Source: an uncultured Bacilli bacterium (lineage in GTDB: Bacteria > Bacillota_I > Bacilli_A > RF39 > UBA660). From it: a stretch of 52,965 bases of DNA. The DNA is taken from assembly GCA_947632375.1 (NCBI GenBank), contig CANRPF010000006.1, positions 1-52,965 of the forward strand. Reading direction: 5' to 3'. The translations under genes were made by a program, and so were the position numbers. The first letter of the stretch is position 1; each line of letters opens with the position of its first letter. This document shows, piece by piece, positions 10,813 through 11,681 of this stretch. The notes beneath the pieces were generated by a model. It did no database searches. It had not been told where the DNA came from and saw only the letters and a program-made list of their open reading frames with translations.

Positions 10813-10899
10813 ATGATATTTTATTTTATGGGATTGATTACTGGCTTAATCGTAGCTTATCTCATTTTTAATGACCCAAAAAGAGGAGGATTTACTTAA
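10813..10899 (+). CDS. Mini hydrophobic peptide (28 aa)
   Basis: MIFYFMGLITGLIVAYLIFNDPKRGGFT. Its 3' end carries the RBS (aagaggagga) of the PARG-like gene. TAATG overlap. Confidence 0.25.
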   Translation: MIFYFMGLITGLIVAYLIFNDPKRGGFT

Positions 10900-11681
10900 T
10901 GGGATATTTTGACAATAGAGAAGCTCTATCCAAAAGAGCCAGAGCATTATATAAATTTAATGAAGAATTTTACAAAAAAGAAATAGAGGCGGCGGTCCTC
11001 GGTTCACGCATCTATAGTCCAGATTTTTCTTTGCCTAGACAAGATACTAAGGAAGAAAGAACTTGGATACTAGCGCCCATAACCTCGACGGCCGCGACTC
11101 TACAATACAAAGAAGGCAAAACCGCAGTATTAAATTTTGCATCATACAAGAATCCTGGCGGAGCCTTCATTGATGGAAGCAGCGCACAAGAAGAATGTCT
11201 ATGTCATAGCTCTTGTTTATATAATATTTTAAAATATCATGCAGATTATTATGATTGGAATAATGAACATAAAAATAGAGGGCTATATCTAAACAGAGGA
11301 ATTTATACTCCAAACGTAATATTCTATACAGACTTAGCAGTTTTAGAGTCTGATACTTACACTGTTGATGTTATTACAGTAGCCGCACCTAATTGGGGTA
11401 CCGCTTCAAGATATAATATGGCGACACTAAAAGAAAATGTAGAAGTATTGGAATCTCGTATTAACTTTGTATTAGATATAGCAAAAGATAATAATGTTGA
11501 TACTTTAATTCTTGGCGCTTTTGGGTGCGGAGTATTTAAACAGAATGCGTATACAGTAGCTTCATTTTTTGCTAGTGGACTTCAAACAATGAAACCCTTT
11601 AAAAAGGTAGTGTTTGCAATTCCACAAGGGCCTAATTACAATATGTTCGCGGAGGTATTAAGAGATGGCTGTAAGAGATGA
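10899..11681 (+). CDS. Bacterial-type poly(ADP-ribose) glycohydrolase-like macrodomain protein (DUF2263 / TIGR02452 family)
   Basis: PARG signature GGG-x6-8-QEE present as NPGGAFIDGSSAQEECLCHSSCLY. Downstream LGAFGCGVF glycine-rich loop. Confidence 0.7.
   Translation: MGYFDNREALSKRARALYKFNEEFYKKEIEAAVLGSRIYSPDFSLPRQDTKEERTWILAPITSTAATLQYKEGKTAVLNFASYKNPGGAFIDGSSAQEECLCHSSCLYNILKYHADYYDWNNEHKNRGLYLNRGIYTPNVIFYTDLAVLESDTYTVDVITVAAPNWGTASRYNMATLKENVEVLESRINFVLDIAKDNNVDTLILGAFGCGVFKQNAYTVASFFASGLQTMKPFKKVVFAIPQGPNYNMFAEVLRDGCKR

Follow-up and report, generated by a model that had tools for sequence, protein, structure and literature searches.

A bacterial-type PARG gene in the RNA-repair island of a large phage: a candidate RNA de-ADP-ribosylase

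The PARG gene, its family and its active site

The contig CANRPF010000006.1 (assembly GCA_947632375.1), assigned to an uncultured Bacilli bacterium, contains a gene for a bacterial-type poly(ADP-ribose) glycohydrolase (PARG) that is surrounded by genes of RNA repair. We examined this gene in positions 1 to 52,965 of the forward strand, which we refer to as the window. The features of the locus are collected in Table 1.

The 260-residue product of the gene matches the NCBIfam profile TIGR02452 over residues 25-243 (E 1.1e-57, 195.5 bits for a cut-off of 50) and the Pfam profile PF10021, PARG_cat_microb ("Microbial-type PARG, catalytic domain", formerly DUF2263; E 4.7e-27, 95.6 bits for a cut-off of 23.5). 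Sequence searches against proteins of known structure return the PARG of Deinococcus radiodurans (DrPARG, 5ZDB, E 3.6e-26) and that of Thermomonospora curvata (TcPARG, 3SIG, E 2.3e-22). In the AlphaFold2 model, built from an alignment of 47 sequences (referred to as A1), the helices 4-24 and 26-35 precede an alpha/beta core (predicted local distance difference test 87.8, predicted template-modelling score 0.89). When this model is compared to the PDB with Foldseek, the 13 top matches are bacterial PARGs only, with template-modelling scores (TM) of 0.74-0.80, including 3SIH (E 7.5e-19, TM 0.80) and 5ZDB (TM 0.79); ordinary macrodomains come next, at a TM of about 0.45-0.5. A macrodomain fold that is extended by N-terminal helices is thus predicted for the window PARG, and the open reading frame (ORF) encodes a genuine bacterial-type PARG macrodomain.

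The signature loop of the window PARG reads G87-G88-A89-x7-Q97-E98-E99 (GGA-x7-QEE). The alignment pairs E99 with the catalytic E112 of DrPARG, whose substitution by alanine abolishes the activity (PMC6445106). The residues G87, G88, Q97, E98 and E99 are invariant in A1, and the third position of the signature is occupied in the 120 closest homologues mostly by Met (about 80 sequences), and less often by residues such as Gly (15) or Ala (6). Since this position varies among the closest homologues, the presence of GGA instead of GGG is not a defect. Inactivation of the enzyme by the loss of the third glycine was considered and rejected: the position is free to vary across the subfamily. In the diphosphate-binding loop, seven of the eight positions are invariant in A1 (G206, A207, G209, C210, G211, V212 and F213), while F208 may be Phe, Tyr or Trp; a loop of the GAxGCGVF type is also seen in most phage homologues. 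Judging from the conserved residues and the model, the window PARG is apparently catalytically competent and would cut the C1'' bond of ADP-ribose.

In TcPARG, an arginine at the ribose-cap position limits the enzyme to exo-cleavage (PMC6445106). According to the alignment, the window PARG does not have this arginine of the obligate exo-glycohydrolase subtype: the position is occupied by Asn246, which is nearly invariant in its clade, and by Thr267 in DrPARG, and the loop that precedes it is four residues shorter in the window PARG than in DrPARG. By its sequence, the window PARG looks like the open, DrPARG-like kind.

A preliminary description, made from the sequence alone, had presented the gene as a phage-encoded PARG-type macrodomain hydrolase located immediately upstream of RNA-repair genes. 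The TIGR02452/DUF2263 profile search that it proposed and the structural comparison bear out the family, and neither of the findings that it held to be incompatible with this assignment is observed: the macrodomain fold is predicted, and the glutamate pair E98-E99 is kept. Its signature, given as GGG-x6-8-QEE, is correct as to the QEE and two of the glycines, but the "GGG" was a misreading of GGA. The two remaining statements hold as well, since the ORFs around the PARG gene match phage replication and auxiliary families, and the genes that follow it encode a Thg1-like protein, a metallophosphoesterase and an RNA ligase.

The closest protein to the window PARG, among 5.8 billion clusters, is at most 51% identical. 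PHROGs contains no family for it, and no PADLOC model matched. Members of the family in deposited phages are limited to those of Lak megaphages, of Bacillus phage G (gp114, unannotated), of two huge uncultured phages and of one faecal scaffold, while at least 175 viral contigs of IMG/VR carry relatives of the window PARG. In a neighbour-joining tree, the phage and bacterial PARGs radiate like a star on long branches, the phage and Lachnospiraceae sequences are mixed, and the window protein has no reliable placement. The enzyme family is already known and its context was broadly anticipated by earlier work; the phage-borne copy is the addition.

Gene neighbourhood and phage origin

Table 1. Features of the PARG locus and related genes of the window
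Feature	Position	Strand	Evidence
Metallophosphoesterase, upstream end of the RNA-repair island	3122-3871	+	Phage-family and profile matches
Pol-beta-type nucleotidyltransferase (NTase)	3858-4904	+	Phage-family and profile matches
SPFH/Band-7 and flotillin-domain protein	4967-6514	+	Profile search
Major-vault-protein (MVP) homologue, 857 aa	7163-9736	+	MVP_shoulder 3.2e-20, Vault_3
Terminator-like hairpin, end of the upstream MVP gene	9739-9764	+	Consensus scan only
Promoter-like site TTGATT-17-TATAAT with TG	9763-9791	+	Consensus scan only
HD-domain phosphohydrolase, 150 aa	10008-10460	+	PF01966 E 0.0033 (below cut-off); phrog_990 metal-dependent phosphohydrolase 2.9e-07
Shine-Dalgarno GAGGAGG, 9 nt 5' of the PARG ATG	10883-10889	+	Sequence reading
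PARG gene, bacterial-type poly(ADP-ribose) glycohydrolase (TIGR02452 / PF10021)	10899-11681	+	ORF of 260 aa, ATG start
PARG signature loop NPGGAFIDGSSAQEECLCHSSC, residues 85-106 (Q97-E98-E99 at 11187-11195)	11151-11216	+	Alignment to 5ZDB, A1
Diphosphate-binding loop GAFGCGVF, residues 206-213	11514-11537	+	Aligns to GAWGCGVF of DrPARG
Thg1-like 3'-5' nucleotidyltransferase (tRNA 5'-end repair)	11665-12504	+	PF04446 9.4e-27; phrog_4717 9.2e-82
Calcineurin-type metallophosphoesterase, candidate RNA 3'-end healing enzyme	12606-13454	+	PF00149 7.5e-10; phrog_1649
RNA ligase with N-terminal OB domain (Rnl5 / DRB0094-like architecture)	13470-14714	+	PF21189 3.2e-19; PF09414 3.2e-12; phrog_968 3.7e-54
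250-aa protein, repeated Cys-rich motifs, weak DUF2726 match	14772-15524	+	Profile search
Terminator-like hairpin, closes the predicted unit 9790-15540	15518-15540	+	Pattern match only
AAA_33 polynucleotide-kinase-like protein	16606-17103	+	PF13671 1.9e-22
Metallophos_2 phosphoesterase	17084-17650	+	PF12850 9e-09
ATP-dependent DNA ligase	27811-28926		Phage-family match

The HD, PARG, Thg1-like, phosphoesterase and RNA ligase genes belong to one predicted unit between two strong terminator-like hairpins, in the order 63-aa ORF, HD, 62-aa ORF, PARG, Thg1-like, phosphoesterase, RNA ligase, 250-aa gene. All of them are on the same strand as the PARG gene: the HD gene lies 442 nt upstream, the Thg1-like gene shares its first 17 nt with the end of the PARG gene, the phosphoesterase and the RNA ligase are found 0.9 and 1.8 kb downstream, and the AAA_33 kinase 4.9 kb downstream. 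The latter forms, together with the Metallophos_2 phosphoesterase, an end-healing pair in the next unit of the same island. The RNA ligase also scores 89 bits with TIGR02306, which is below the cut-off of that profile. HD homologues occur in the same island of the phages of the L023 and L071 types described below. Since RNA-repair genes are present on both sides of the PARG gene, the latter stands mid-way in a complete heal-and-seal RNA-repair kit. By its orientation and its closeness to a polynucleotide ligase and to end-healing enzymes, the window PARG gene fits the pattern expected of PARG-containing end-repair operons (DRB0100-DRB0098 and kinase-Thg1-PARG-KptA types).

The 250-aa protein that ends the unit is 72-73% identical to its copies in two other loci (L044 and L050), where it also follows the RNA ligase, compared to about 50% for the flanking genes; by its sequence, it is probably the product of a mobile, homing-type gene.

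The large ORFs of the window are all on one strand and the G+C content is about 31%. The phage-family matches include proteins of replication (a Pol III alpha-type DNA polymerase, two topoisomerase II subunits, an ATP-dependent DNA ligase, DnaB, primase, RecJ, Dda helicase and Sak4) and other proteins (NrdD and its activase, guanylate kinase, dUTPase, RuvC, RNase H, PhoH, an endolysin, and homing endonucleases of the GIY-YIG and HNH types). This gene content identifies the window as the replication and auxiliary part of a large gut phage, and relatives in IMG/VR are contigs of 90-220 kb. A megablast search of positions 8000-20000 against deposited phages gave no match. The nearest bacterial PARGs (46-49% identity) are those of Lachnospiraceae, Acetatifactor and Blautia; there is weak sequence evidence that the Lachnospiraceae may be the host group, and phages that cluster with related MVP-carrying gut phages are reported to infect Bacillota (preprint 10.1101/2023.11.10.566534).

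The tRNA and Rfam scans detected no tRNA gene and no Rfam family in positions 1-52965, despite the large set of tRNA-repair genes. Among the other genes of the window, the ORF of the topoisomerase II large subunit (22953-24488, + strand) has a TTG start, and its match to the PHROG profile begins at position 168 of 661; the N-terminal part of this subunit may be separately encoded or interrupted. Homing endonuclease genes are found at 29563-30522 and 42075-42980.

Linkage of PARG and of the major vault protein to RNA repair

We grouped the PARGs found at 89 loci of phages or mobile elements by 70% identity, which gave 19 lineages, and searched their 10-kb flanks with the proteins of the window and with queries for a second type of ligase, for KptA and for SIR2. 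A ligase, Thg1, kinase, KptA or NTase gene is present within 10 kb of PARG in 10 of the 19 lineages (an RNA ligase in 9), and a metallophosphoesterase of any of the four types queried in 11. The arrangements differ. In the L023 clade of phages of about 190 kb, the order is PARG-x-Thg1-HD-NTase-metallophosphoesterase-exonuclease-DUF5662-ligase; in the L077 clade, PARG is directly followed by an RNA ligase (PF09414 and PF21189) and then by a kinase; L071 and L083 have PARG-RNase T exonuclease-ligase, and L087 has SPFH-DUF1653-PARG, with a ligase further on. In L021 and L298, which are related phages, PARG is found at the other end of the island, directly upstream of the metallophosphoesterase-NTase pair. 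The adjoining phosphoesterase is the sole RNA-repair homologue that turned up near the PARG of MT835651.

The phages of the window and of L021 are clearly related: their SPFH proteins are 80% identical, their MVPs 69%, their NTases 60% and their Thg1-like proteins 56%. Their PARGs, however, are only 50% identical, differ in position and do not group as sisters in a rough tree. The divergence of these PARGs and their different placement suggest separate, repeated recruitment into the same island rather than inherited synteny. PARG is a sporadic accessory of the RNA-repair island and not a core part of it. An adjacency of Thg1 and PARG as a general rule was also considered and had to be rejected in view of the 80 closest Thg1 loci (see below), although some of their contigs carry a PARG gene about 19 kb off.

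Other contexts were observed. In L002, a SIR2 gene (9240-9989, PF02146 2e-57) lies 33 nt upstream of PARG, and SIR2 is found within a few kb of PARG in several other phages (L017, L024, L032, L039, L036 and L014). It may be that the phage SIR2 and PARG form a writer-eraser pair, or that the former is a KptA-like sirtuin. The PARG of L084-L086, which is 47% identical to that of the window and occurs on more than 100 contigs (European Nucleotide Archive and NCBI metagenomes), belongs to a Bacteroides-like mobile element with MNT/HEPN pairs, HipA, DUF4869 repeats, an integrase and an N6 methyltransferase; this context resembles a defence island and is devoid of RNA-repair genes.

Bacterial loci provide a further link to RNA repair. 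In the metagenome-assembled genome of an Acetatifactor (L176, CAJUAB010000008.1, 8622-11416), four genes form the row AAA_33 kinase-Thg1-PARG-Tpt1/KptA (Thg1, PF04446 2.8e-30; KptA, an RNA 2'-phosphotransferase, PF01885 7.7e-49), and the PARG is 47% identical to that of the window over its full length. KptA is directly downstream of PARG in five loci of the Lachnospiraceae type (L176, L169, L178, L181 and L208), and near PARG, although not directly after it, in two other loci and in one phage contig. KptA is an RNA-repair enzyme that uses NAD+ and yields ADP-ribose-1'',2''-cyclic phosphate; in a side reaction, it caps 5'-phosphate ends with ADP-ribose. The position of KptA after PARG in these loci ties the closest cellular relatives of the window PARG to NAD+-using RNA repair. 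The gene row of L176 is unannotated and no description of it was found in the literature; its gene content suggests an operon for NAD-dependent RNA repair that has not been described before.

The MVP gene upstream of the PARG unit led to a more regular linkage. We considered the 10 kb around the MVP gene in 51 IMG/VR loci (L252-L302) that carry relatives of the window MVP. The pair formed by the AAA_33 kinase and Metallophos_2 is present in 37 of the 51 loci, and so is an RNA ligase of either of two types; an NTase is found in 22, Thg1 in 18, SIR2 in 4 and PARG in 2. The typical order is MVP-ligase-kinase-phosphoesterase, and phage MVP genes are nearly always embedded in an RNA-repair island. 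Phage MVP genes are already on record (preprint 10.1101/2023.11.10.566534), but their linkage to RNA repair is apparently not discussed there, since neither "RNA ligase" nor any word beginning with "neighbo" occurs in the text of that preprint. SIR2 genes also lie within MVP/RNA-repair islands that have no PARG (L255, L265, L287 and L293). A gene for an SPFH/Band-7 and flotillin-domain protein recurs beside the MVP gene, both in the window and in L021 (10661-12214); in L087, the SPFH/flotillin gene (4072-5637) is two genes upstream of PARG.

The eukaryotic vault consists of MVP, PARP4, the NADase TEP1 and vault RNA, with ADP-ribose binding at the MVP shoulder, and the phage island would echo this composition. 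For human vaults, NADase activity and the binding of ADP-ribose to the shoulder of MVP have been reported (2026 preprint 10.64898/2026.05.01.722283). That PARG, or SIR2 in other phages, is the ADP-ribose arm of a vault-like RNA-repair system of phages is a long shot; if it were true, the island would unite a shell of MVP with enzymes for RNA processing and for NAD/ADP-ribose. The MVP linkage is nevertheless a more striking result than the PARG gene itself, and deserves more follow-up than the latter does.

Proposed role, alternatives and comparison with known systems

RNA ADP-ribosylation has recently been recognised as a weapon of bacterial conflicts, used by RhsP2 and by CmdT-type toxins, and to our knowledge bacterial PARGs are the only known erasers of ADP-ribose at the 2'-OH of RNA. 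Among the hydrolases tested in a study of 2025, only SCO0909 from Streptomyces coelicolor and DRB0099, which is DrPARG, remove the ADP-ribose installed by RhsP2 on the 2'-OH of RNA, and both protect E. coli from RhsP2 (PMC11833690). Bacterial PARGs also clear ADP-ribose from the 5'- and 3'-phosphate ends of RNA, and SCO0909 surpasses the other hydrolases compared in its activity on the 5'-phospho-ADP-ribosylated RNA made by KptA (PMC11833690). DRB0099 belongs to an operon that encodes a ligase, PARG and an HD/polynucleotide kinase protein, for which an aprataxin-like cleaning of ends has been proposed (PMC11833690). NAD+-dependent RNA repair, with KptA or sirtuins and Macro domains, had been predicted in jumbo phages (PMC7824862, PMC9503650).

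By analogy with these enzymes and from the gene context, we propose that the window PARG may be an RNA de-ADP-ribosylase that serves the repair of RNA, in particular tRNA, by the phage, a reading to which we give about an even chance. In this mechanism, toxins or defence enzymes of the host would cleave tRNA or other RNA, or ADP-ribosylate RNA, the marks being placed by host ADP-ribosyltransferase toxins or by enzymes of the Tpt1/KptA type. PARG would strip the ADP-ribose that blocks 2'-OH groups or 5'- and 3'-phosphate ends before the adjacent enzymes restore and reseal the RNA, a role similar to that of aprataxin at adenylated ends: the HD protein, the phosphoesterases and the kinase of the phage would heal the ends, the Thg1-like and Pol-beta enzymes would rebuild the lost nucleotides, and the Rnl5-like ligase would seal the RNA. 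It is plausible that PARG would in this manner help the phage to escape host defence. If this proposal is correct, RNA whose ends or riboses are blocked by ADP-ribose is among the damage that the gut phages of Firmicutes must repair, RNA-targeting ADP-ribosylating defences that are not yet identified exist in Lachnospiraceae, and a de-ADP-ribosylation step has to be added to the classical heal-and-seal repair of tRNA by phages.

The link to RNA repair, which had been part of the preliminary description, is seen again in other phages as well as in operons of bacteria. A related option of the same pathway, also put forward in that description, is that PARG disposes of ADP-ribose-1''-phosphate. 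Here the outcome is divided: the Tpt1/KptA or sirtuin writer that it requires was not found in the 53 kb, but KptA adjoins the closest bacterial PARGs, which makes this chemistry relevant.

Several observations weigh against a dedicated function in RNA repair. No ADP-ribose writer (PF01885 Tpt1/KptA, ADP-ribosyltransferase, SIR2 or PARP) was detected among the scanned ORFs of the 53-kb window, nor did tblastn searches of the window with the KptA of L176 and the SIR2 of L002 give a match, the window being part of the phage genome only; the mark would therefore come from the host or from the rest of the phage genome. A core RNA-repair gene lies within 10 kb of PARG in only 27 of the 89 loci, and conversely PARG was found within 10 kb of Thg1 in none of the 80 closest Thg1 loci. 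No RNA-repair homologue was found near the PARG genes of Lak megaphages, of Bacillus phage G or of LR756502, and PARG has other neighbours as well: SIR2 in L002, a DHH protein in L001, and MNT/HEPN toxin-antitoxin genes in L084-L086. According to a rough estimate for phages of 100-200 kb, a random position in the auxiliary region would bring a gene to within 10 kb of an RNA-repair gene in perhaps 15-25% of cases, so that the enrichment is only moderate.

These SIR2 neighbours bring to mind another function. The hydrolysis of poly(ADP-ribose) is the founding activity of the family, as seen with TcPARG and DrPARG (PMC6445106, PMC8120803), and the window PARG could erase ADP-ribosylation of proteins, either poly- or mono-ADP-ribose attached by a PARP-like enzyme or a toxin of the host as a defence, or a mark made by an ADP-ribosyltransferase or sirtuin encoded in another part of the phage genome, in a regulated writer-eraser pair. 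The SIR2 gene that is 33 nt from PARG in L002, and those a few kb away in several phages, resemble the known sirtuin-macrodomain pairs. However, neither ADP-ribosyltransferase, PARP nor SIR2 genes were found in the window, whose PARG has RNA enzymes rather than protein modifiers as immediate neighbours, and DrPARG leaves mono-ADP-ribose linked to Glu or Ser in place (PMC6445106); we consider this function unlikely. Somewhat less likely still is the destruction of NAD-derived immune signals or by-products, for instance the cleavage of the Thoeris signals 2'- and 3'-cyclic ADP-ribose (2'cADPR and 3'cADPR). The 1''-2' ribose-ribose O-glycosidic bond of 2'cADPR would be, anomeric configuration aside, of the kind that PARG cuts in poly(ADP-ribose), the phage glycosidase RyDEP uses exactly such a strategy (PMC13232231), and phage Macro domains are predicted to target mostly soluble ADP-ribose derivatives (PMC9503650, PMC7824862). 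Asn246 and the shortened loop that precedes it also suggest that the adenosine-ribose side may be open in the window PARG. On the other hand, the fold of RyDEP is unrelated, cleavage of glycocyclic ADP-ribose is reported for no PARG in the literature searched, and the neighbourhood consists of genes for RNA repair rather than NAD-salvage (NARP) or sponge genes.

The same neighbourhood bears on the two alternatives in which the substrate is DNA. Bacterial PARGs act on 5'-phospho-ADP-ribosylated DNA too (PMC11833690), and the window encodes an ATP-dependent DNA ligase, so that the enzyme could remove ADP-ribose from the 5'-phosphate ends of DNA, as proposed for the radiation-induced DRB0100-DRB0098 operon of D. 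radiodurans. We hold this to be improbable: the DNA ligase gene is 16 kb from PARG and in another block, while the predicted co-transcribed partners, the Thg1-like protein and the Rnl5-like ligase, are RNA enzymes. PARG chemistry concerns O-glycosidic or phosphate-linked C1'' bonds and not the N-glycosidic bonds to bases, which counts against an anti-DarT enzyme that would take ADP-ribose off thymidine or guanosine after DarT-like toxins have modified these bases in phage DNA. The anti-phage activity of DarTG is well established, and orphan erasers of the antitoxin type are known in phages (PMC11825919), but the known erasers of base-linked ADP-ribose in DNA are macrodomains of the DarG (TARG1/ALC1) type and NADAR enzymes, not PARG-type enzymes (PMC11833690, PMC9411070). 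No PADLOC model matches the window PARG, and its gene lies outside the group of DNA replication genes of the window. The reversal of DarT marks, which the preliminary description had suggested, is hence the least credible of the functions considered here, with only a very small chance of being correct.

Regarding systems that have been described, one of the closest to the window PARG is DrPARG (PDB 5ZDA-5ZDG), with which it shares the family, the fold, the catalytic QEE, the GxxGCGVF loop and the absence of the ribose-cap arginine. The contexts are alike in that a ligase and the end-healing functions of HD and kinase proteins stand beside PARG (PMC11833690). The two proteins are nevertheless only about 30% identical; DrPARG belongs to a bacterium and its operon is tied to radiation damage, whereas the partners in the window are a Thg1-like protein, metallophosphoesterases and an RNA ligase of the Rnl5 type, and HD and kinase are encoded by separate genes. 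TcPARG (3SIG/3SIH), the founding structure of the bacterial-type PARG / DUF2263 family, is the best structural match and also has the N-terminal helical extension; unlike the window PARG, it has the ribose-cap arginine (PMC6445106), and the third residue of its signature is a Gly (PMC8120803) instead of an Ala. SCO0909, a member of DUF2263 according to the literature (PMC11833690), provides a precedent for activity on 2'-OH and phosphate-end ADP-ribosylated RNA, but is encoded by a chromosomal bacterial gene for which RNA-repair neighbours are not reported.

The Acetatifactor row L176 shares with the window not only the PARG but also its Thg1-like and AAA_33 kinase partners; it differs in that Thg1 is upstream of PARG, in the reverse order, in that it carries the Tpt1/KptA writer, which the window lacks, and in that it is bacterial and not of phage origin. 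By contrast, DarG-type antitoxins and orphan anti-DarT erasers are TARG1/ALC1-like macrodomains or NADAR proteins, while the fold and the profile matches of the window protein are PARG-type. RyDEP, the anti-Thoeris glycosidase, has an RyR-domain fold with a His/Asp active site, so that only the chemistry of the bond would be common to it and to a macrodomain such as the window PARG (PMC13232231). Last, the NAD+-dependent RNA repair that Iyer, Burroughs, Anantharaman and Aravind predicted in phages (PMC7824862, PMC9503650) associates the RNA ligase, end-healing enzymes, Thg1 and NTases of jumbo phages with KptA or sirtuins and Macro domains, a concept that also applies to the island described here. 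In these surveys, PARG-type macrodomains were not singled out (the word "PARG" is absent from the text of PMC9503650), and the vault protein term appears in neither of the two.

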